Part shown: positions 1-18,568 of the stretch, in pieces
Layout of the letters: each line of letters opens with the position of its first letter
Position numbering within the stretch: position 1 is the stretch's first letter
From: Candidatus Jordarchaeales archaeon
Lineage (GTDB): Archaea; Asgardarchaeota; Jordiarchaeia; Jordiarchaeales; Freyrarchaeaceae
Direction: 5' to 3'
DNA length: 32,000 nucleotides
Assembly: GCA_038889235.1 (NCBI GenBank)
Contig: JAWAHN010000002.1
Location: 344,356-376,355 of the forward strand
The notes under the pieces: model-generated
Database searches by the model: none
Seen by the model: the letters and a program-made list of their open reading frames with translations, nothing else
What the model was told of the DNA's origin: nothing
Position numbers and translations under genes: made by a program

Positions 1-170
1 ACTGTGCACCCGTCGATCTTCGCGCTCTTGACGGATTCTTCAGTTACCGTGGCCTCCTCCCGCTTTCCCTCCTTTGAAACCTCCAGTATTATTGTGACCT
101 GCCACCCCTCTCGTTCAGGAGTCAGTTCAATCCTGTGAAAGCGGTCATATGTAATCGTCTTCTTAACCAC
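1..170 (-). CDS. 5' part of a hypothetical protein running off the left edge (MVKKTITYDRFHRIELTPEREGWQVTIILEVSKEGKREEATVTEESVKSAKIDGCT...)
   Basis: Manual translation: GTG at 170 preceded by a GAGGAGG RBS, an open frame to position 1, and a TTTTATAT TATA-like element near 225-235 on the minus strand. Family not recognised. Confidence 0.6.
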   Translation of the reverse strand, partial: MVKKTITYDRFHRIELTPEREGWQVTIILEVSKEGKREEATVTEESVKSAKIDGCT

Positions 171-296: not shown

Positions 297-1715
297 GTGG
301 GATTGAATTTGCTTGTTCTTGAAGGCGAAGACGGGAGGAAAGTAAAGGTCTTCGTCGTCGACTTCCACACACACGTGGGAAAGGAAAAGGTCCTAGACGC
401 CGTAGGGGAGGCCTTCCGCTCCAATACACCAAAACAAACAATAGACTTCTACCATAGGCTCCAATTCGAGTTAAAGGCGTGCATGAACTCCTCCCCCTCA
501 AGTTACCGCTACAAGCTCGTCGAGCCGCTCACAGAGCCCCCAAAAGCGTTGAAGTCTTTCTATGACTCTTTTGGTGGCATGTGGGGGTGGACGGTAGACC
601 AGTTTGTTGCCTTCCCCTTCAACGACTACAGAGCCTACTCCACGAAGCCGGGCTTCATGATACCCAACGACATGGTCTTAAAGCGCTCGCTCACACTGCC
701 ATTCTCCCCTCGGATGCTTGGCTTCGTCAGGGTGGATCCGCACGACGGCGAGGGAGCCGTAAGAGAAGTTGAGAGGTGCGCTGCCGCGGGGGCGAGGGGG
801 CTAAAACTCCACCCGATATCACAAGGCTTCCTCGACGAGGTGAACTCTAAGGAGGTGCAGGATGTTGTCATCGCAGCTATCAACAACGGGATGCCCGTTA
901 TCTTTGACTGCCGGTACTACGCGACAGCGGAGGACATTTATGAGCTCGTGCAGTCCATTCGAGGTGCAGTTAAAAGAGAGCGGTTTGCCGTAGTGCTTGC
1001 TCACTCGAGCATGGAGTACACGAAGAAAGGCCTCTACGATATACTAGGCGACCCGAACATATACGGTGATACGTCAGGTGTGAGGGGTGACGACGTGCAG
1101 GTCTTCCTCAAAATGCTTAGAAACAACTTGGGCGATGAGTGGTCTCGCAAAATTCTCTTTGGCACAGACTTCAACTACTTCACTATCCCGCAAGCGGTCG
1201 ACTTTCTCTCTTATCTTTTCACCTGGGACTTTTACGATGAGCTCGACGCAAAGCTGAAAGACGTCGAACGTATACTTGCGGGGAATGCTCTCTCGATGAT
1301 CAAGCCTCACATCGAGTCCCACGGGCACACTTGGGCGATGAAGTTTAGAGGGGAGGCCGGAGAGGCTTTCTCGAGGAACCTGCTCCATAGAGCAGGCTAT
1401 GCTGCGTCGAAGAAGACGGTTGAGACATTAACATATGACCCAGTAGTTCAAGGAAGTGGGGTGGTGGACGCAGAAAGCTTCGTGCTATCACTCCGCCGTG
1501 CCGGAGGCGGGGGTTCGTCGCTGATCGTTAGGAGGGGAGCTAAAAAAACTTTAGTAGCACTTCTAAGCGTTTGTGATGTGGACGCAAGCTTAAGAGTGAG
1601 AAAAACATCCGGAGACTACACAAAAGTAATCCGGGGTGTGGTGTGGGGTAGTGTAGAGGTGGACAACGTCGGCGAAGCTGAGGAGCTGGCGGACAAATTG
1701 ATTCGAGGTTTTTGA
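297..1715 (+). CDS. Amidohydrolase_2-family metal-dependent TIM-barrel hydrolase with an extra C-terminal region of about 130 aa
   Basis: DFHTH metal motif, GFVRVDP, GLKLHP, VVLAH, YGDTSG and ILFGTDF motifs in the expected barrel order. Confidence 0.85.
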   Translation: MGLNLLVLEGEDGRKVKVFVVDFHTHVGKEKVLDAVGEAFRSNTPKQTIDFYHRLQFELKACMNSSPSSYRYKLVEPLTEPPKALKSFYDSFGGMWGWTVDQFVAFPFNDYRAYSTKPGFMIPNDMVLKRSLTLPFSPRMLGFVRVDPHDGEGAVREVERCAAAGARGLKLHPISQGFLDEVNSKEVQDVVIAAINNGMPVIFDCRYYATAEDIYELVQSIRGAVKRERFAVVLAHSSMEYTKKGLYDILGDPNIYGDTSGVRGDDVQVFLKMLRNNLGDEWSRKILFGTDFNYFTIPQAVDFLSYLFTWDFYDELDAKLKDVERILAGNALSMIKPHIESHGHTWAMKFRGEAGEAFSRNLLHRAGYAASKKTVETLTYDPVVQGSGVVDAESFVLSLRRAGGGGSSLIVRRGAKKTLVALLSVCDVDASLRVRKTSGDYTKVIRGVVWGSVEVDNVGEAEELADKLIRGF

Positions 1716-1804
1716 ATCTTGGAGAGTATAGCTGAATCATTTTTCCAGAATTTTTATACGGTGAAATCTCTCTTTAGAGAATCTCTGGAGAGGCGTGTTA
1801 ATAG

Positions 1805-3142
1805 GTGATTCAATTGTCCTTGAAACTTGAGGTTGTTAATGCTGGCGCTGCTGATGGGCGCGCATTTATGAACCCGAGCGACATGAAGCAGCTTGGAATA
1901 GACGACTTTGACATAGTCGTTTTCATTAACGAGTACGAGGACTGGGGTGCTGTCCAAGTTATATCTAAGAGCGACTGCCCTGAAGGCTACATAATGATTG
2001 ACGAAGACGTGCTTGACTCGGCGAACGTTTCAGAAGGAGACGTAGTTACTGTCAAGAAGAAAAAGGCTAGAGGAGGGATAAAATACGTTCAACTGGGTGT
2101 TGAACCAATGGAGGGGCAACCTACAGAGGAGGTCGTCGTGTGGGTTGCGGATCACGTCAGTGATCTTGCCAGGATACTCAAGAAGAGGCCCATATACAGG
2201 AACCTCGAGGTCAGCTGGCGGGATGCTGAGTGTGGTTACATAAAGCTGAGGGTTCAGTCAACTAAGCCCGACCTCTCGGGTGAAGAGGTTGGAATAATCG
2301 ATCCGACGGGGCACGAGGTCACGTTCGAAATAGTTCCAGCCCTCGACATGACGTTTAACGCGGTGCTCATGATAGACGTCTCCGGATCCATGCAGAAGAA
2401 GGATATGAGGCTTAAAAACGTCGACGGAGCAATAGAAGGGCTGAAGAAGGGGATGCGTGAGACACAGCGCTTGAAGGAGTTCCTTGTAGGAATAGAGGAA
2501 GGTGGGGTAGTTAGCAGGATAAAGGCAGCCGCCCTCGCAACGCTGCTCTACTTGTCCTTGAAGATAGGGAGAGGGTGGGGTGAAAACGTTCAAGTCATAA
2601 CGTTCGCCGAACAAGTTGAACCGTTAACCATAACGGACAAGCAGGGAAGGCAGACGACAGTCATAAAGTGTACTGGGGAGAGTAAGGCTCTGGGGCTTGA
2701 AGCTATAGGAGAGTACATACTTGAAAAGTGCCAGGAGGGAAGTGGGTTAACGTTCATGAGCGGCGCATTAAAGAAGGCCGCCGAGTTAGCTGAACTGTTC
2801 CCTCCTAACCCAAAGACCGGAAAACCTTATCCTGTGATGTTCGTCCTGCTCTCCGACGGGTATCCAAACACCGGGGACGAGGAAGCAGGAATCCCGGTCA
2901 ACCCGATACCTATAGTGCGCGACTACTTCTCCCAGAAAACAGATTGGGTACTCTACACTATAGGAATTGGAGAAGCGGACATGGAGCTCATGCGCAGACT
3001 GGCAGAGATAGGGAGGGGTGAGGCATTCAAAGCTGACGACTTCGGCGATCTGGCACGGTGGTACGACATGTTGGCGCAGCGCTTCGCGATAACGGTAAAA
3101 ACGACCCCTTCACAGTTTGCTGCAGAAGTCTCTGAAACATAA
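1805..3142 (+). CDS. Cdc48/VAT-type N-domain (double-psi barrel plus second subdomain) fused to a von Willebrand factor A domain; no ATPase
   Basis: The N-terminus (LEVVNAGAADGRAFMNPSDMKQLGI...GYIMIDEDVLDSANVSEGDVVTVKK, then LKKRPIY...KLRVQSTKP) follows the CDC48_N/CDC48_2 pattern. The C-terminus has MIDAS DVSGS (2375-2389), GLT, LLSDG and YTIGIG. No Walker A. Start may be TTG 1814 after AGGTGA. Confidence 0.8.
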   Translation: MIQLSLKLEVVNAGAADGRAFMNPSDMKQLGIDDFDIVVFINEYEDWGAVQVISKSDCPEGYIMIDEDVLDSANVSEGDVVTVKKKKARGGIKYVQLGVEPMEGQPTEEVVVWVADHVSDLARILKKRPIYRNLEVSWRDAECGYIKLRVQSTKPDLSGEEVGIIDPTGHEVTFEIVPALDMTFNAVLMIDVSGSMQKKDMRLKNVDGAIEGLKKGMRETQRLKEFLVGIEEGGVVSRIKAAALATLLYLSLKIGRGWGENVQVITFAEQVEPLTITDKQGRQTTVIKCTGESKALGLEAIGEYILEKCQEGSGLTFMSGALKKAAELAELFPPNPKTGKPYPVMFVLLSDGYPNTGDEEAGIPVNPIPIVRDYFSQKTDWVLYTIGIGEADMELMRRLAEIGRGEAFKADDFGDLARWYDMLAQRFAITVKTTPSQFAAEVSET

Positions 3143-3240
3143 AGACGCTGCCTGTAGCGCACAGGGCCTAAAGCGACTTCGAAGCTGGGAGAACCCCCGC
3201 ACCCTCCAAAATTTTTAGTACGCAAATGCAGTTAACGGGG

Positions 3241-3261
3241 AACCTCACCCTTGGTGAGGTT
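3241..3261. terminator. Perfect 9-bp stem hairpin between convergent genes
   Basis: AACCTCACC-CTT-GGTGAGGTT in the 3143-3291 gap. The terminator role is inferred. Confidence 0.35.
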
Positions 3262-3291
3262 AAAGCACTCCATCCTAAACTTGGCTCAAAA

Positions 3292-6200
3292 CTAGTTCGC
3301 CGAATCAAACACTTTTACGAGCTTCACTTCATGCCTGGGTGTCTGCACTACTTCAGATGGTAGTAGTTTATCTTTCACGTAGACTAATGCTTCCAGCGTG
3401 ACTATTGTGGTGTTAGGTACCTGCGGGGGCTTCCACGCCACACTTACCGTTTTCTCCTGCTGCTTAATCTCTCCGCTCCAAACTTTCCGTGTTTTCGTCA
3501 GAACCCTCGCAGTTAAGACAACCTTAATCGGTTGCGCCACTTTCTTCTTAACGTTGAATGCCAGTTTACTCTCTTTTCTCTCCTCCAGCATGGACGGGAG
3601 CTTGGTGAATGCGACCTTCACGAGAGGGCTGGTTGGCGGGCTTACCATGAACATTGGAGAAGTCTCCGTTAGCACGAAGGAGCCTTCCTGCGTTTTGAAC
3701 TGTAGCATGGCTTGCAAGTACGTCTTCTTTCCCGCAAGCCACGGTGGAATCTCAATTTTCCCGTGAACCTTCACTCCCTTCCTAGGTTTAAGCTCAAGGC
3801 TTAACTTCTCCTCAACCTCAACTTCCCCCTGAAGTGTAAAAAGGCGGACCACCCCTCTAGCTTTTACCTGCCGCTCAGCGGCATTCTCTGCTTCGAACTC
3901 ATACGCGACCTGACCACCAGCTTGCACATCCCTCACTCTAAGTGTTACCTCACTGATGGTAATCGGGGGACGAGGAGTTACATTAACCTCGACTTCTTCA
4001 CTATAAACCCTAGCTCCGTCTGCCTCCAAACTTATCTTTAACTTGTGCCTTCCCTTCTCCTCCCAGGCTTTGACTGTCAGTGGCAAAACATGCATCCCTT
4101 CGTCCACGACATACTCCTTCGACGTCACGGATCCGGCCGTCAACGAAACACTTAGCTTTACCGGCTTCATAACCCCTTCAACTCTCACTTTGAGCTTCAC
4201 CACAATGGTCGACGACGCTGCAACATTCTTCGGGCACTCGATGCCGGAAACCTTGACCGCCTTCTTAGGCGGAAGAGCGGTAACATGAACGACCCCCGTC
4301 TTACACTCCGCTAGAACCTCCTCACCATGAACTACACGGCACACGAAGGCGAAGCTCCCCTCCGTAACATCCTTGCCAACCTTAACCTTGCAGGACAGCC
4401 TCTTTGACTGCTTCACAACAAGCTCCCTATAATCCATTAGCCTCCTCTCCCTTCCCTCCAGGAAGATCTCAGCAAAGAAGGGGCCCGCAACGTCTGGGTT
4501 CAAGTTCACAACTTCGAAAACCGCCTTGCAAGTCTCACCCCACTTAACCACGTGCTTGGAAACACTACCGGAAACACTCAACCGAGGTCTAAGGGAAATA
4601 TGTGAGACGTCGATGGCTCTTGAAACATGGGCCGCAGCGACTGCTGTTTTGCTCTCTGCACGCTCCACCCTTCTACGTGAAGAGGGCTGAATACGAGTGA
4701 GCTTTGACTGCTTTGCTGTCTTCACAGCCCTCTCTGCCTTAGTTCTATCCTGAACGACAGGAGTTTTAGGCTTCGCAACGCTTACCTGTGCTTCTCGCCT
4801 AACTTGTGCCGTTGGCGGGGTAAGCCTGGTGACTACTATAACCTTTGGCTTAGCCTCTGCCTCTCTAATGGTTACAGCCTCTTTCTTCTTGGCCTCCGCT
4901 GTCTGTGCGACAAGTTCCTGTCTTGTTGCGGTGGTCTTTGTTTCCACTGCTGCTACACTTGGCCTTTCAACTCTCACCACCGGGGTTTTATATTCTGCCA
5001 CTGTTTCCCCCATGTAGAGTACTTGAAACCTAAGTGTGTACTCCCCCTCCTCGCCCGACGGAATAGGCACACTCACTACCGCAGGGATGTTTATCTTTTT
5101 CGTCAGAATAGGGGATATCTTTCCACCCTTTTCCGCTGTAACAACTAGTTTGTACTCCCCTCTAAACTCGGGAGGCCTACTCTCGACCTTCACCTTAAGC
5201 TCCCTAGTCTCCCCCACTCTGACGGTTTTAGGCGTGGTCCCAACAGTCACCTTCACGTTAGGTATCGCGGTGGCTTTAAACGTCCTAGTTTCTGCTTCGC
5301 AGCCCCCCACTCCCTCACCTTTCAAGGCAAACTTCAGACGGCACGTCTTAGTTCCATGGAACGCTTTGAGAGGGATTTTGAGGGGGAGCTGCGAGCTCGT
5401 GACAATAACAGTCTTACCTTTCCTCAAAAATATCTTCTTCACAGCCGTCTGGATCGTCTCGCTTTCATCGGCGAAGGTCACCTTCGCCACGAGCGTTGCC
5501 TGCGCATCCCCATCGCTGCTCACTTCAACAGTGAATGGTATGATCTCCTCTGCAACCACCATGGACGCTGTCGTCTCTGCTTTCATCGACACCTTGACCG
5601 CTAGCTTTGGTTTCTCTACAGATTCCACCCTTGCCTCTCCGAACGCTTCGATCAACGGGTCCCCTGGACCCGTGCAATACTTCCTAGTGATCTCCATCAA
5701 GCTGCGGGCTACGACCCCCATGTCTCCCCCCGAGCTACTGTAGAGGTATAGCAGGTAGTCTGCAGGGGAGCACGGGGGTTCAAGCTTATCTGAACCGTAG
5801 ACGGATACAAGGAAAGGCTTGAGGTAGTCTTGGAACCCAAGCTCATCTACTTCCTCCTCAACGTACTTTAGCATCCCCCGGACGGCTTCGAAAAGCTTAG
5901 AGTAGGGCTCTCCTGAAGGAGAGGTGTTGTAGAATGATGCCTCCTTCTCCTTGAGCCCCTTGTCCGGGAAAAACTTCCCCATTAAACCATAGAGTATCGC
6001 TTTTTCCCTGTTCTCAACTACCACGCTCGAGCTGACCCTTGGAACCCTAACTCCTTTACTTGCTAGTTTGACCGCTTTGAGCGCCAGCGCCTGTAGGAGA
6101 GCTACAAGCGCCAACCTTCTTGCTGCACTGAACTGTGAGTCGAAGACTCTGACCTCTATTGTTCCATAGTCTGTGAAGGGGAAAACGTCAACGTACCTGT

Positions 6201-6993
6201 CATCCGGCGGCTCCCTCATAACTACAGAGTCAAAAGCTCTCCTATCCAGTGACTCTAAGTAGGGTATGTAGTGGTCTTTGTCTGCGGGCCCCATCTGGCT
6301 CGTGTTGTACTTAAGCCTTATGTCTCGAACACAGTCCTTTCCGATTATGAAGACTTTACCCTTCCTCTGAACTTTGACAGTCCCAGTAACCCCTTCCCTG
6401 ATGAATGGAGAGTTCACCGTGAGAGCTATCAGGTGAGGGACAAATGCGCGTATCATGTTGTACACAGCTGGTGCTTCCTCTTTGCTCACTCCCACGTGGT
6501 AGTGGTCTCCAAAGGTTACCCCGCTCCTATACTCTTCCTCGAAGGGGTTGAAACCTATAGAAATCAAGTGGTATCCTGAAGGGAGGGAGTCGTATGCCAC
6601 GCTATAGAGCGTTTTAATCCACCATTCAAGCTCCTCCATAAATCTGCACGGAGGAGTTACGAGCTCCAAGATCCAGGTTATCTGGCTCACGTTCGGGTCT
6701 GGTCCGAGAACGTCGACGTCGGCAGCTCCACGAGGGGTCCTATAGGAGACCACAACGTAAGGTAGTCTCTTCCCCCTTCTCTCTTTCTCACTAAAAGAGA
6801 CGTTAATGACGTTATCTGAAACCTCAGCTGGCGCGTCCGCGACAGCCTTCTGCAAGTTTTTCAAAGCGTTCCCCATAAGGTGCTTCCACACTTGGATTAG
6901 GGTTGCCCCACGTAGCAGTCTACCCTTTGAGTCGACCACTTGAACCTCCATCTCTATTCCTTGAGTGAAGGGGAGCTTGTGCATTTCAACCAC
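3292..6993 (-). CDS. GCS2/YbdK-like carboxylate-amine ligase (N-terminal about 450 aa) fused to about six beta-sandwich (Ig-like) domains and a low-complexity linker
   Basis: GCS2 motifs in order: GIEMEVQVVD, ILELVTPP, GDHYHVG, HLIALTVNSPF and DVFPFTDYGTIEVRVFD. The C-terminal 770 aa shows repeated Val-rich alternating beta-strand blocks of about 100-110 aa. No signal peptide or TM helix is visible. Confidence 0.8.
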   Translation of the reverse strand: MVEMHKLPFTQGIEMEVQVVDSKGRLLRGATLIQVWKHLMGNALKNLQKAVADAPAEVSDNVINVSFSEKERRGKRLPYVVVSYRTPRGAADVDVLGPDPNVSQITWILELVTPPCRFMEELEWWIKTLYSVAYDSLPSGYHLISIGFNPFEEEYRSGVTFGDHYHVGVSKEEAPAVYNMIRAFVPHLIALTVNSPFIREGVTGTVKVQRKGKVFIIGKDCVRDIRLKYNTSQMGPADKDHYIPYLESLDRRAFDSVVMREPPDDRYVDVFPFTDYGTIEVRVFDSQFSAARRLALVALLQALALKAVKLASKGVRVPRVSSSVVVENREKAILYGLMGKFFPDKGLKEKEASFYNTSPSGEPYSKLFEAVRGMLKYVEEEVDELGFQDYLKPFLVSVYGSDKLEPPCSPADYLLYLYSSSGGDMGVVARSLMEITRKYCTGPGDPLIEAFGEARVESVEKPKLAVKVSMKAETTASMVVAEEIIPFTVEVSSDGDAQATLVAKVTFADESETIQTAVKKIFLRKGKTVIVTSSQLPLKIPLKAFHGTKTCRLKFALKGEGVGGCEAETRTFKATAIPNVKVTVGTTPKTVRVGETRELKVKVESRPPEFRGEYKLVVTAEKGGKISPILTKKINIPAVVSVPIPSGEEGEYTLRFQVLYMGETVAEYKTPVVRVERPSVAAVETKTTATRQELVAQTAEAKKKEAVTIREAEAKPKVIVVTRLTPPTAQVRREAQVSVAKPKTPVVQDRTKAERAVKTAKQSKLTRIQPSSRRRVERAESKTAVAAAHVSRAIDVSHISLRPRLSVSGSVSKHVVKWGETCKAVFEVVNLNPDVAGPFFAEIFLEGRERRLMDYRELVVKQSKRLSCKVKVGKDVTEGSFAFVCRVVHGEEVLAECKTGVVHVTALPPKKAVKVSGIECPKNVAASSTIVVKLKVRVEGVMKPVKLSVSLTAGSVTSKEYVVDEGMHVLPLTVKAWEEKGRHKLKISLEADGARVYSEEVEVNVTPRPPITISEVTLRVRDVQAGGQVAYEFEAENAAERQVKARGVVRLFTLQGEVEVEEKLSLELKPRKGVKVHGKIEIPPWLAGKKTYLQAMLQFKTQEGSFVLTETSPMFMVSPPTSPLVKVAFTKLPSMLEERKESKLAFNVKKKVAQPIKVVLTARVLTKTRKVWSGEIKQQEKTVSVAWKPPQVPNTTIVTLEALVYVKDKLLPSEVVQTPRHEVKLVKVFDSAN

Positions 6994-7002
6994 TCGCCAA
7001 AC

Positions 7003-8529
7003 CTAGATGTCAACAGCTGGTTTTAAATAATGGTCGATGTAGCTCTTCGCCTCATCCGCCTCCCTCCTCCTCAACACTCCTGAATCAACCAGCACGCTTA
7101 TCCCTCGCGAGAAAAGGGAGGCAGCCTCGGGGTTCAGGAGGTAGTTGAACTTCTTCAGTCCAGAGGCTATAGCACCCCACACTTCTTCTCTGAGGCTCAA
7201 GCTAACTATAGACTCAAGCTGGGAAGAGACTGCAACGCCGCCAGCTTCAACAACTATAGGGGGAATTACGTCGACAACTTCTTTTCCCCCAGCAAGCCTG
7301 TAGGCGAAGAAGGGCACGTACACAGTCGCCGGAAGCTTCCCGGGGAAAGTTGAAGCGGGAACGAGGAACGAAGAGTTTGCCTCGACACGAGACCTAGCTT
7401 GGGAAAGCCACTCCCTGGAGATCTCCTCGTACTCCCTCTTCTGCCTGACCGCCTCGAGGAAGACCTGCTTCACCCGCCTGACTTCCTGGTTTACATCCTC
7501 AATCTCTCTTTCCAACTCTTTAAGTATTCTTTCCTCCTCTTTCTGAAACTCTTTTTCAGCCTTTTTCTTGAGCCGCTCTTTCTCCCTTTCAAAGCGCTCC
7601 CTGCGGCCGAGGTAATCCAAGTACTCCCTCTCAACTCTGGAGAACTCCTCAATGGCTTCTTCGAGCGAATCTATAACTGCCCTTATCCTCTCCAAGGTTA
7701 ACTCGGGCTCCCCTCCAGACGTAGCCTCTGAAATAGCCTTCTCCAACTTCTCAATATACCGCGAGAGGGGAAAAGTGCTCGGCGGGCTCTCAGAAAACTT
7801 CAACGCCTCTATTCTTTTAACTTCCATCTCAAACTTAGCCCTCTCCTCCTCCACTCTCCCCTGAGCCTTCTCCTTAATTCTCTGCTTCTCCTCCTCAGCT
7901 TTCCTCTCGGCCTCCTCAATTTCTTCCCTGTAGCGGGCCAGCGTTTCATCGATAATTCTCAAGTTCTCCCTGAAAACCTCGGCAAAGTGGTTCACGTTCT
8001 CTTTTGTGAGCACGGTAAAAGACGACAAAGTCTCGCTTGCAGCCTTTAGGGAGATCCTTTCTGGGACCAACTCGTCAGGCTTGACATTCCACCGCTCCAC
8101 ATGTTGAAGTCTCTCGGTGAGCGCGGTGAGCGCCGGGCCGCTGACGAGTCCCGGCACGTTGGCTTTGAGGGGCTTAACCTGTCGTTTGAGAGACGAAACC
8201 CTCAGCTTTAGCGCCTCAGTAAATGATTCCAAACGAGCCTCGTCAAAGTCTTTGAAGGATGAAAGGTGAGGCGAGTAGAAAACTGAGCCTGAAAGTGAAG
8301 CTGTCGCCTCAACGGCCACCATGCTCTCCCCATCAACTGGGATAAGGTGTATCGGGAAAAAGAACTTCGAAACAGACACGAGTTCGCCGCCGGAAGATTT
8401 CTTCCAAATTAAGAAGAATGCCAGCGCAACCTCGACAGCGTCAGCGTACTTCGAGGGGAAGAACTCCCTTCTCTGAAGCACAAACGGCACTGAAAATATT
8501 TCAACCAATCCCAGGCGGCCTCCATGCAT
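7003..8529 (-). CDS. Uncharacterised protein: N- and C-terminal alpha/beta segments flanking two E/K/R-rich coiled-coil stretches
   Basis: 508-aa ORF with coiled-coil blocks near aa 190-245 and 290-385. Its stop lies 9 nt upstream of the ligase start, suggesting an operon. Confidence 0.75.
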   Translation of the reverse strand: MHGGRLGLVEIFSVPFVLQRREFFPSKYADAVEVALAFFLIWKKSSGGELVSVSKFFFPIHLIPVDGESMVAVEATASLSGSVFYSPHLSSFKDFDEARLESFTEALKLRVSSLKRQVKPLKANVPGLVSGPALTALTERLQHVERWNVKPDELVPERISLKAASETLSSFTVLTKENVNHFAEVFRENLRIIDETLARYREEIEEAERKAEEEKQRIKEKAQGRVEEERAKFEMEVKRIEALKFSESPPSTFPLSRYIEKLEKAISEATSGGEPELTLERIRAVIDSLEEAIEEFSRVEREYLDYLGRRERFEREKERLKKKAEKEFQKEEERILKELEREIEDVNQEVRRVKQVFLEAVRQKREYEEISREWLSQARSRVEANSSFLVPASTFPGKLPATVYVPFFAYRLAGGKEVVDVIPPIVVEAGGVAVSSQLESIVSLSLREEVWGAIASGLKKFNYLLNPEAASLFSRGISVLVDSGVLRRREADEAKSYIDHYLKPAVDI

Positions 8530-10925: not shown

Positions 10926-11981
10926 GTGTCCAACATGGAGAGCCTCATTAATGAGATTCTTCAAGAGAAAGATGATGTTAGTGAGATTTTAAACTACGTT
11001 CCTAAAATTCAAGTTTTCGGTGTTGGCGGTGCTGGGAATAACGCTATAAACAGGCTTGCCAGCGTAGGCGTTGAAGGCGTCGAGCTTATTGCAGTTAACA
11101 CAGACGCTCAAATACTGCTCGGCGTGAACGCAGACAAGAAGCTGCTAATAGGGAAGGAGACTACTAAGGGGCTTGGCGCCGGAAACGACCCAGACATCGG
11201 AGAAGCTGCAGCAAAGGAGAGCATCGAAGAGATAAGGGAGCTGATTTCAGGCGACCTGGTCTTTGTGACCTGCGGTCTAGGCGGAGGAACGGGAACTGGA
11301 GCATCCCCAATAATAGCTGAAGCTGCCAAGAAAACCGGAGCTCTGACGATTTCCGTGTGCACGCTCCCATTCATAGCTGAGGGTGCGAGGAGGTGGAGGA
11401 GCGCCTCGTCTGGTCTCAAGAAACTTGCGAGGGTTTCAGACACAATCATAGTTATACCGAACGAGAAACTCCTCGAGGTTGCCCCAAACCTTTCGCTGCT
11501 CCAAGCCTTCAAGCTGGCGGATGAAATACTTGTTAGGTGCGTGAAGGCTATATCTGAAATGATAACGAAGCCAGGCCTGGTCAACGTTGACCTTGCAAAC
11601 GTGAGGACAATAATCAAGAAGGGAGGTGCGTCACTCATAACTCTTGGCGAAGCCAGCGGGGAGAGGCGTGAAGAAAAAGCTGTAGATGACGCGCTCAACA
11701 ACCCGCTTGTCGACGTAGACATTTCGTCCGCAACTGGGCTGCTGGTCAACATAAGCGGGGACCAAGACCTCAAACTATACGAGGCGGAGGCCATAATAAG
11801 GTACGTGTCGGAGCGCATATCCCCCGATGGGGAGATAATATGGGGGGCAATAATAGACCCGACGCTGAAAGACAAGGTACGAGTGTCCCTCATAATAAGT
11901 GGCGTCACATACAGGCAGGTAGAACAAATACTTTCAGGTGAATACGTTACGCCGCTAGGATTACAGCTGGCTAAAATCTAG
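10926..11981 (+). CDS. ftsZ: Cell division protein FtsZ (FtsZ1-like gene context)
   Basis: GVGGAGNNAINR, AVNTDAQ, GLGAGNDP, GLGGGTGTG signature and PFIAEG; lies upstream of secE-nusG. The T7 loop reads NVDLAN. Confidence 0.97.
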   Translation: MSNMESLINEILQEKDDVSEILNYVPKIQVFGVGGAGNNAINRLASVGVEGVELIAVNTDAQILLGVNADKKLLIGKETTKGLGAGNDPDIGEAAAKESIEEIRELISGDLVFVTCGLGGGTGTGASPIIAEAAKKTGALTISVCTLPFIAEGARRWRSASSGLKKLARVSDTIIVIPNEKLLEVAPNLSLLQAFKLADEILVRCVKAISEMITKPGLVNVDLANVRTIIKKGGASLITLGEASGERREEKAVDDALNNPLVDVDISSATGLLVNISGDQDLKLYEAEAIIRYVSERISPDGEIIWGAIIDPTLKDKVRVSLIISGVTYRQVEQILSGEYVTPLGLQLAKI

Positions 11982-17116: not shown

Positions 17117-17378
17117 AGAGTTGAGAGAAAAGATAATGGAGGCCACGGTGGACGTCCTGAAAGCAGTTAAGAGAAGGATAGAATACGTAGAAGCTCTCGG
17201 GAAAGTTAAGAGGGAGAGGGGGTTGCCGATCAGGGATCCAGAAGCCGAGAAAAGACTCATCGTGAGAGTTAGGGAGGAGGGGGTTAAGATGGGGCTTGAC
17301 CCTGACTTTTGCGAGAAACTCGTAAGGATGCTCATCGAGTACTCGGTTGTCGTCCAGATGAGGGAGGCGCAGCGTTGA
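17091..17378 (+). CDS. Chorismate mutase (AroQ/CM_2, standalone)
   Basis: ELREKI...RRIEYVEALGKVK...PIRDPEAE helical pattern; overlaps aroC and tyrA. Confidence 0.85.
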   Translation: MGSQVGEIEELREKIMEATVDVLKAVKRRIEYVEALGKVKRERGLPIRDPEAEKRLIVRVREEGVKMGLDPDFCEKLVRMLIEYSVVVQMREAQR

Positions 17379-18280
17379 AGGTCGCTATCCTTGGCGGCAC
17401 GGGACGCATGGGAGCTTGGTTTGCAAGGTACTTTAAGAGAAAAGGGTGCGATGTTGTAATCTGGGCTAGGACCATCGAAAACCTTGTTAAGGTGGCTGAA
17501 GAAATCGGAGTGAGCTACGCTCTAAGTGCCGAAGAGGCTGTTAAAGACGCTGACCTGGTTCTTGTATCCGTGCCAATAAGCGCGGTTCCAGAAGTTGTTA
17601 AGAAAATTTCACCGCATGTTAAAAGGGGAGCCATAGTATTTGACGTAGCTTCAGTCAAAGGGAAAATACCTGAAGTTCTAAGGGAGGAGGGGGTGGCACA
17701 CGGCTACAAGGCTGCAAGCCTGCATCCCATGTTTGGCCCTGGAGCCAAGGGAATCGAGGGAAACAAAATCGTGGTAATACCTTTAGAAGGGTTTGAAGAG
17801 ACCGCGAAGTGGCTAGCAGACTACTTCGCCGAAGAAGGCGCTGAAATAATCTTTTCGGACGCTGAAACCCATGATAGGATAGTGGCTTTAACCCTAGCGC
17901 TCCCTCACTTCGTCAACATATTCTTCGCGCTTCTACTTTCCGATTTAAACGTAAACCCCGAGGAGCTCAGAAAGTTTTCGGGAACAACGTTCAGCGTTCA
18001 GTTCACCTTATCAGAGAGCGTCTTACAGGAGAACCCAAACGTTTATGCGGAAATCCAGATGGAAAATGAGAAATTCAAGCACGTTCTTGAAAGAGGGAAA
18101 GCAATTTTCGAAGCCCTATCCCAAGTGGTGTACTCTGGCAACAAAGAAAAGTTCACAGAGCTATTTTCCAAGGCACGCGAGTGGACGCAAGGCGACAGAG
18201 AAAGCAGAGAAGCATACAGGAAAATGTACCAGATAATTGAGGCCCTCAGGAAAGGAGGCAGACAAGGACAGTCAGCATGA
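17375..18280 (+). CDS. tyrA: Prephenate/arogenate dehydrogenase
   Basis: KVAILGGTGRMG Rossmann motif, DVASVK, HPMFGP and HDRIVALTLALPH. TTG 17375 overlaps the CM stop (TTGA) after a GGGAGG RBS (ORF track 17309). Confidence 0.93.
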   Translation: MKVAILGGTGRMGAWFARYFKRKGCDVVIWARTIENLVKVAEEIGVSYALSAEEAVKDADLVLVSVPISAVPEVVKKISPHVKRGAIVFDVASVKGKIPEVLREEGVAHGYKAASLHPMFGPGAKGIEGNKIVVIPLEGFEETAKWLADYFAEEGAEIIFSDAETHDRIVALTLALPHFVNIFFALLLSDLNVNPEELRKFSGTTFSVQFTLSESVLQENPNVYAEIQMENEKFKHVLERGKAIFEALSQVVYSGNKEKFTELFSKAREWTQGDRESREAYRKMYQIIEALRKGGRQGQSA

Positions 18281-18382
18281 AAAGTAGTGTTACACGTGGT
18301 GCTAGCTTCACCATGGAAAGTTACCCCTGAAACGTCAAACTCAAATAGACGAAGAACACCTACCCCCAGCAGGTGAAACTAA

Positions 18383-18568
18383 ATGAAAGGCAAAAGCTTA
18401 GTTGTACTTGAAACCTTCCACTCAGAAGTAAAAAGCGAGTACACCTGCTACCTCTGCGGGAAAGAAACGTTTGAGTTCTGCGATGAGTGCGGACAACCCG
18501 TTTGCAGTGACCACCTAGCTAGATGCGAGTACTGTAAAAAGAAAATATGCCCCAGTTGTGATTACTAA
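18383..18568 (+). CDS. 61-aa Cys-rich zinc-finger microprotein (AN1/B-box-like spacing)
   Basis: C-x2-C-x7-C-x2-C-x4-C-x2-H-x3-C-x2-C-x4-C-x2-C (9 Cys, 1 His); AGGTGA RBS 6 nt before the ATG; fills the gap between tyrA and glnA. Confidence 0.7.
   Translation: MKGKSLVVLETFHSEVKSEYTCYLCGKETFEFCDECGQPVCSDHLARCEYCKKKICPSCDY

Follow-up and report, generated by a model that had tools for sequence, protein, structure and literature searches.

Do four unusual genes that lie side by side in a Jordarchaeales genome belong to a single system and, if they do, what might that system act on? The genes lie in the first quarter of the stretch of DNA analysed here (the window: 32,000 nucleotides of contig JAWAHN010000002.1 from Candidatus Jordarchaeales archaeon, assembly GCA_038889235.1, positions 344,356 to 376,355 of the forward strand); coordinates below refer to this window unless they are prefixed by a locus number (L###) or by G000:C2. 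Four long open reading frames form two co-directional pairs that converge at 3142/3292. On the plus strand, P0001 (297-1715, 472 amino acids (aa)) is an Amidohydro_2 TIM-barrel metallohydrolase with a C-terminal extension, and P0002 (1805-3142, 445 aa) combines a Cdc48-N-like double-psi barrel with a vWA domain. On the minus strand, P0003 (3292-6993, 1233 aa) carries a YbdK/GCS2-type carboxylate-amine ligase domain and a long beta-sandwich tail, and P0004 (7003-8529, 508 aa) is a head-and-hairpin coiled-coil protein. An inspection of the letters and open reading frames alone (hereafter the sequence-only reading) had already described two convergent pairs with these domains, which the open reading frame list and Pfam bear out, and had proposed that they make up a protein tagging and recognition module. 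Our comparisons show that it represents a 'type A' copy of an Asgard-specific enzyme module inherited as a unit, whose core consists of the amidohydrolase, the vWA protein and the ligase.

Inheritance of the core genes

Homologues were sought among 5.8 billion clustered proteins. Except for a few metagenome-assembled genomes labelled otherwise, all named homologues of the vWA protein and of the ligase, whether long or short, come from Asgard archaea, and the contigs of the exceptional genomes carry both genes. The closest homologues are named Candidatus Jordarchaeia or Jordarchaeales, Freyarchaeota and Freyrarchaeum, and the same order is represented by a closed chromosome, CP147778 (Freyarchaeia). 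We find the module in Loki-, Thor-, Hod-, Heimdall-, Hermod-, Sigyn- and Jord/Freyarchaeia; a sample of 201 Asgard genomes, each at least 80% complete, yielded no copy in its Odin-like, Atabey-like and several further families. In this sample the ligase occurs in 110 genomes and the vWA protein in 109, with nearly identical counts per family; 105 genomes have both genes, 9 have one alone and 87 have neither. Searches of protein atlases yielded nothing beyond 'hypothetical archaeal' or 'amidohydrolase', and we found no publication on the module in the literature searched, which does not cover all journals.

The three core genes are adjacent or at most 10 kb apart in the 80 Asgard genome loci that we fetched via the ligase. 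The amidohydrolase gene abuts the ligase gene in Heimdall-, Hod-, Hermod- and Lokiarchaeia, and the vWA gene in Jord/Freyarchaeia and Thorarchaeia. Loci of the Hodarchaeales type have the order amidohydrolase, ligase, vWA with a 4-nucleotide stop/start overlap, and several lineages show translational coupling between hydrolase and ligase. In Thorarchaeia the vWA-amidohydrolase pair lies 6-7 kb from the ligase, with unrelated genes in between. All four genes of our locus, P0004 included, are adjacent within the genus and the family, and lie within 10 kb of each other, in a changed order, in Freyarchaeum. The remaining neighbours are lineage-specific and unrelated; within a lineage the flanks are stable and made up of housekeeping genes.

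Could this linkage simply mirror the history of the species? Phylogeny argues against it. The trees of the ligase, the hydrolase and the vWA protein each separate the type B genes of Jord/Freyarchaeia, together with Thorarchaeia and Asgardarchaeum, from the type A genes, together with Heimdall- and Hodarchaeia (support in the Shimodaira-Hasegawa-like approximate likelihood ratio test (SH-aLRT) of at least 98). A common species history cannot by itself yield such a split, so that the congruent paralogy is in itself evidence of linkage. It also indicates that a second module, conserved in all Jord/Freyarchaeial genomes searched, is a paralogue of the whole module, its three genes having been duplicated or acquired together. 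In the genome studied here this second module lies about 85 kb away (L013:2682-11181; G000:C2:255681-264180). Amidohydrolase B and vWA B share a strand, and the opposite strand encodes a 385-aa coiled-coil protein, a 248-aa protein and ligase B (1180 aa).

A third paralogue (L013:16414-18960; G000:C2:269413-271959) is an 848-aa fusion of a dead amidohydrolase fold, in which the HxH, Lys/His and Asp ligands are replaced, to a Cdc48N-vWA protein. Homologues of 850-895 aa were present in every Jord/Freyarchaeial genome searched, and the existence of this natural fusion argues for physical docking between the hydrolase fold and the vWA protein. An SPFH/Band-7 gene lies directly upstream of the fusion.

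The sequence-only reading had cautioned that convergent orientation leaves shared function unproven. Conserved linkage, whose absence from related genomes would have spoken against that reading, is now documented by four independent lines of evidence: synteny, co-occurrence, the congruent paralogy of modules and the amidohydrolase-vWA fusion. The trio is strictly co-inherited, and both enzymes and the metal ion-dependent adhesion site (MIDAS) of the vWA domain are under purifying selection. We regard the module as almost certainly a real functional unit.

The ligase, the hydrolase and the vWA protein

What kind of ligase is P0003? Its reading frame opens at GTG 6993 or ATG 6984, the latter being the likely true start, and the stop codon of P0004 (7003-7005) lies directly upstream. 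In an AlphaFold model of 1200 residues (m02bdb0a6f449; predicted local distance difference test (pLDDT) 83), a compact ligase domain (aa 1-455; 5629-6993, minus strand as for all parts of the gene) with an inserted beta subdomain at about aa 30-105 is followed by a beta-sandwich tail of about 780 aa. The tail begins with two CARDB/Ig-like beta-sandwich domains (aa 465-677; 4963-5601; pLDDT about 90). A linker predicted to be disordered follows (aa 679-800; 4594-4959; pLDDT below 50), basic and enriched in Ala, Val, Thr, Lys and Arg, and leads to about four more beta-sandwich domains, which extend from residue 805 to the end of the model and belong to a last segment of aa 805-1233 plus the stop codon (3292-4581). 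Since the GCS2 family (PF04107) is matched at the N-terminus above the Pfam cut-off (34.4 versus 21 bits), the 'GCS2-Ig fusion' of the sequence-only reading holds, its 'Ig' part corresponding to the beta-sandwiches of the model.

Exhaustive structure comparison places the YbdK-like 1tt4 first (Z 33.9, root-mean-square deviation 2.8 over 332 residues), ahead of the plant glutamate-cysteine ligase (GCL) 2gwc (Z 26.5), GshF (21.4), Dop (20.0), PafA (19.8) and glutamine synthetases (about 15). For the ligase domain we relied on this comparison (VIA), the Foldseek search with the entire 1200-aa model being dominated by the tail. The tail itself matches CARDB, GH2 Ig-like, macroglobulin MG and transglutaminase C-terminal barrel domains (Z 10-13) and, in Foldseek, also resembles A2M/C3/C5 arrays; judging from the model, this fold resemblance is generic. 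The ligase domain aligns with E. coli and Salmonella YbdK across the signature motifs. Residues E110, H164, H166, R182, E280 and R282 are invariant in sets of 22 and 51 homologues, and conservation at E14, E16 and R266 is 90% or higher in the same sets, a pattern that suggests catalytic roles for them.

Databases name the protein 'glutamate-cysteine ligase family protein', and a review counts Asgard matches among the archaeal GshA homologues (PMC7278568). Is P0003, then, an ordinary gamma-glutamylcysteine synthetase that happens to lie beside unrelated genes? It scores far below every NCBIfam GshA/YbdK subfamily and equivalog cut-off (78 versus 176 bits for TIGR02050, for example). Having passed PF04107 and missed all of these, it is a member of the broad GCS2 family with no named equivalog. 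Moreover, chance does not account for the way in which it is linked to two other genes, co-occurs with them and shares their paralogy, and we give hardly any credence to this explanation. P0003 shares fold and motifs with the YbdK/GCS2 ligases (PF04107; E. coli YbdK 1r8g, Salmonella 1tt4, plant GCL 2gwc), but its family differs from them in the inserted beta subdomain, the tail, the sub-cut-off equivalog scores, the Asgard-only range and the obligatory linkage to two other genes.

The sequence-only reading had also invoked the Pup ligase PafA and the depupylase Dop as relatives. The common superfamily fold stands (Z 19.8-20.0), and the pairing of a ligase with an amide-hydrolysing activity follows a similar logic: Dop deamidates Pup at the outset and removes it at a later stage (PMC3511204). 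Membership of the PafA/Dop group does not stand, however: the closest relatives of P0003 are YbdK/GCS2 and GCL enzymes, and Pfam gave no Pup_ligase match at E ≤0.01. The hydrolase of the module is a TIM-barrel metalloenzyme rather than a paralogue of the ligase, no Pup-like gene is part of the module, and the module is archaeal whereas pupylation is actinobacterial.

The hydrolase P0001 consists of a catalytic part (about aa 1-340) that matches Amidohydro_2 (PF04909; 41 bits for a cut-off of 26.4) and a C-terminal extension of about 130 aa whose fold is unassigned. The HxH...H...D metal ligands of Amidohydro_2 are present. Residues D22, H24, H26, K170, H172, D204, H236 and D291 are invariant in 40 of 40 and in 30 of 30 homologues, and K170 occupies the position of a metal-bridging lysine. 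Single-sequence searches found no related solved structure, and profile searches only marginal Amidohydro_2 matches. A complex prediction for the amidohydrolase with aa 1-460 of the ligase scored 0.00, which speaks neither for nor against an interaction.

In P0002 the vWA domain is clear (PF00092, 28.7 bits for a cut-off of 23.8), and its MIDAS residues D191, S193, S195, T316 and D351 (DxSxS...T...D) are invariant in 41 of 41 homologues. The CDC48_N match is marginal (35.7 versus 35.1 bits), and the barrel also resembles FwdD barrels; the family profile matches VAT-N (1cz4) and the N-domains of p97/CDC48A over residues 15-94, as well as vWA structures. As far as sequence can tell, the label 'Cdc48-type N-domain plus vWA' is thus right for the vWA part and, for the N-domain, for the double-psi barrel half only. 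Pfam finds no AAA module. The Lokiarchaeial partner (L102:13680-15845) has three Cdc48-N-like barrels separated by a long proline-rich linker. One more Cdc48N-vWA paralogue in the genome studied here stands alone (L021:2835-4187; G000:C2:442834-444186; 36% identity to P0002): no ligase or amidohydrolase adjoins it, and the gene after it encodes a radical-SAM protein that has an HMPTM-type zinc ribbon.

These features raise the question of whether the barrel-vWA protein could help to assemble or activate the amidohydrolase, loading its metal centre for instance, and doing so without a MoxR ATPase, while the chemistry of the enzymes would be a separate matter. vWA/MIDAS adaptors are established in metalloenzyme maturation (PMC9976466; compare NorD, CbbO and CobT). 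The hydrolase has an invariant lysine in the metal-bridging position next to its His/Asp ligands, and it is beside the hydrolase gene that the vWA gene is most often found, up to fusion with a dead hydrolase. The adaptors NorD, CbbO and CobT, which act with MoxR AAA+ proteins, and Rpn10 share the DxSxS...T...D motif with P0002 and are likewise tied to enzymes. Nevertheless, none of the conserved neighbours in the 80 loci is a MoxR/AAA+ gene, and the N-terminus of P0002 is a Cdc48-N-like barrel without any ATPase. The equally strict linkage to the ligase would also be left unaccounted for, and we consider a maturation role improbable.

Accessory genes and flanks

P0004 has no Pfam family above cut-off. 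Glutamate makes up 14.6% of its residues, and 24% between residues 176 and 390. In its model (pLDDT 87) the N- and C-termini build one alpha/beta head, from which an antiparallel helical hairpin (176-388) projects. Composition and predicted hairpin agree with the 'Glu-rich coiled coil' of the sequence-only reading. No solved structure matches at E ≤0.001, and the AlphaFold database returns only uncharacterised archaeal proteins and loose Wzz/Band-7-like topologies. The family has 6 representatives among 1.84 billion proteins, all confined to Jord/Freyarchaeia, where it is linked to the module in 10 loci. That this linkage is kept across two gene orders points to a role of P0004 that is real but lineage-specific. 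The protein had been cast as a structural partner or substrate; given its restricted range, it is an accessory rather than a core partner or a general substrate.

Other clades carry different genes immediately upstream of the ligase. In type B modules these encode proteins of 390-450 aa and of 250 aa, the latter homologous to a 225-aa protein upstream of the Thorarchaeial ligases (hhalign, 97.9%). We compared the two type B genes (clusters c34 and c35) with P0004 as possible split homologues, and the comparisons gave no support. A 794-aa protein, part of which is homologous to the C-terminal part of P0004 (96%), is encoded two genes upstream of the ligase in an Asgardarchaeum locus (L017) and, in locus L089, also upstream of it.

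On the right, the module is bounded by unrelated housekeeping genes, as the sequence-only reading had it: according to Pfam and NCBIfam they encode a nucleoside hydrolase, a low-molecular-weight protein tyrosine phosphatase/ArsC protein, a D-Tyr-tRNA (D-aminoacyl-tRNA) deacylase and FtsZ, whose gene (10926-11981) is 2.4 kb away from the module. The same claim fails on the left. There, divergent from the amidohydrolase and cut off by the start of the window, tblastn with the Freyarchaeum neighbour P0339 detects the 5' part of a conserved gene for a beta-rich protein of about 95 aa (1-170, minus strand; G000:C2:344525-344256). This gene adjoins the amidohydrolase gene in all type A Jord/Freyarchaeial loci. 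We considered the small protein as a Pup-like tag. Its C-terminus varies between genomes (MEIS, VEISQ and KEKKS in the alignment), which excludes it from that role, and the protein is rich in beta structure.

Several further observations concern the surroundings of the module. In Freyarchaeum, the gene of a 238-aa multi-pass membrane protein (L014:7264-7980) separates the amidohydrolase gene from the vWA gene; the genome studied here has the homologue elsewhere (C2:430395-430907). Small GTPase genes are found a few kb from the module in three lineages: a Ras family gene in Freyarchaeum (L014:15220-15768), a Ras/Roc gene in Heimdall-type loci (L042:3759-4739) and, just upstream, the gene of a 193-aa GTPase in Hod-type loci (L050:6876-7457). 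There is none in the window, and since Asgard genomes are rich in such genes, this proximity may be due to chance. In Lokiarchaeia, a 19-kb stretch with the short ligase and the hydrolase also encodes a MIT-domain protein and an actin homologue (L102:6204-7232 and 17349-18551). A 620-aa gene upstream of the Lokiarchaeial short ligase was tried as a detached tail: its product begins with one CARDB-like unit, but shows no homology to the tail (hhalign probability 1%), and we rejected the idea.

Could the module serve in defence against viruses or in another biological conflict, its fast-evolving beta-sandwich and coiled-coil parts sensing an invader and its enzymes acting as effectors? The tail and the accessory genes do diverge fast while the enzyme cores are conserved, and vWA domains are found in NTP-dependent conflict systems (PMC7159879). 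However, PADLOC gave no real match to a defence model, only weak ones driven by the coiled coil. The module is mostly single-copy, its trees track lineages, and its flanks are stable and housekeeping in each lineage; neither Pfam nor NCBIfam finds mobile-element genes adjoining it in the window. A conflict system is therefore very unlikely.

Possible chemistry and significance of the module

What, then, would the module act on? The reading that we favour, tentatively, is that it makes and breaks amide bonds in a protein-directed manner. Since the YbdK/GCS2 fold and motifs are kept, an ATP-dependent acyl-phosphate mechanism is expected: the ligase would activate a carboxylate as an acyl-phosphate and couple it to an amine, and the hydrolase would cut, or prepare, the same amide linkage. 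Both enzymes are tethered to modules suited to protein docking, the ligase to its beta-sandwich tail and the hydrolase fold, as the natural fusion shows, to the barrel-vWA protein, an arrangement that favours a macromolecular substrate, probably a protein. The most plausible targets would be Glu/Asp side chains or the C-terminus. MIDAS sites typically complete their metal coordination through a carboxylate of the ligand, the very group that GCS2-class ligases activate. The MIDAS may thus coordinate a carboxylate of the substrate or partner while the barrel holds a peptide, and P0004 and the protein of about 95 aa may be lineage-specific structural accessories. None of the four N-termini, read from the translations, shows an obvious signal peptide. 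Known vWA-MIDAS adaptors do dock their partners through a carboxylate (PMC9976466); systems pairing MoxR with such adaptors differ in having the AAA+ gene that our loci lack.

The protein tagging scheme of the sequence-only reading, with the ligase as writer, the hydrolase as eraser and the vWA protein as reader, is possible. In its fullest form, it would amount to an Asgard-specific, ATP-dependent cycle of protein modification, unrelated to ubiquitin, SAMP or Pup. The GCS2 writer would attach amino acids or peptides to the carboxylates of proteins, or cross-link these, and the TIM-barrel metallohydrolase would remove the modification; the MIDAS-vWA/Cdc48-N-like protein would read the state of the carboxylate, and the beta-sandwich and coiled-coil scaffolds would position the system on a cellular structure. 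We think such a complete cycle unlikely.

Several points weigh against an action on proteins. We found no gene for a Pup- or ubiquitin-like tag, nor any small conserved protein that ends in Gly-Gly, Gln or Glu, near the module, and any substrate, tag or adduct is as yet hypothetical. The second lobe of the Cdc48 N-domain (the beta-clam, CDC48_2) has no Pfam match in P0002, the profile alignments ending at about residue 94. The long ligases of most classes (about 970-1416 aa) have beta-sandwich tails of 500-900 aa, but the Lokiarchaeial enzymes, at about 550 aa, have none, which implies that the tail is not essential to the chemistry. To our knowledge, all characterised GCS2 and Amidohydro_2 enzymes act on small molecules. 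Finally, FluG, the precedent that comes closest to this pair of enzymes, is regarded as metabolic (PMC6478659).

This precedent deserves attention, as a pathway like that of FluG would give the module a small-molecule substrate. The amidohydrolase would free or prepare an amine or acid and the ligase would join it to glutamate or another carboxylate, in nitrogen scavenging, in a protecting-group step or in making a gamma-glutamyl metabolite or thiol; vWA protein and tail would do no more than organise or regulate the enzymes. An Amidohydro_2 enzyme beside, or fused to, a glutamine-synthetase-like gamma-glutamyl ligase is known in bacteria, fungi and plants (PMC6478659, citing Iyer 2009). The translational coupling of hydrolase and ligase, the tail-less Lokiarchaeial ligases and the top structural matches of P0003, all small-molecule enzymes (YbdK, plant GCL, GshF), fit this explanation. 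FluG-type pairs (fungal FluG, Streptomyces SCO6961/6962 and the plant nodulin type) couple an Amidohydro_2-type hydrolase to an amidoligase of the glutamine synthetase/GCS superfamily, as our module does, and their function is likewise unassigned (PMC6478659). Their ligase, however, is of the glutamine synthetase type (GSI-like, PF00120) and is often part of one polypeptide with the hydrolase, whereas that of the module is of the GCS2 type and a separate polypeptide; they lack the vWA/barrel partner and the beta-sandwich tail, and they belong to bacteria and eukaryotes. The likeness is one of logic, not of membership. A small-molecule pathway would also leave unexplained the strict co-inheritance of a MIDAS-vWA/barrel protein, the fusion of this protein to a dead hydrolase and the beta-sandwich repeats carried by most of the ligases. 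It is nonetheless the main rival, and a serious one, in our view only slightly less probable than the protein-directed reading.

Even a purely metabolic role would make the module a new Asgard-specific pathway, and the annotation 'glutamate-cysteine ligase' would have to be corrected. Lokiarchaeial genomes, which belong to a class that has members in culture, carry the short form of the module, and the proteins are predicted to be soluble. In the module, chemistry known from pupylation and gamma-glutamylation meets two docking domains, the Cdc48-N-like barrel and the vWA domain, that are typical of proteostasis in eukaryotes. Asgard archaea being the closest known relatives of eukaryotes, conserved systems found only among them may represent cell biology that we do not yet understand.

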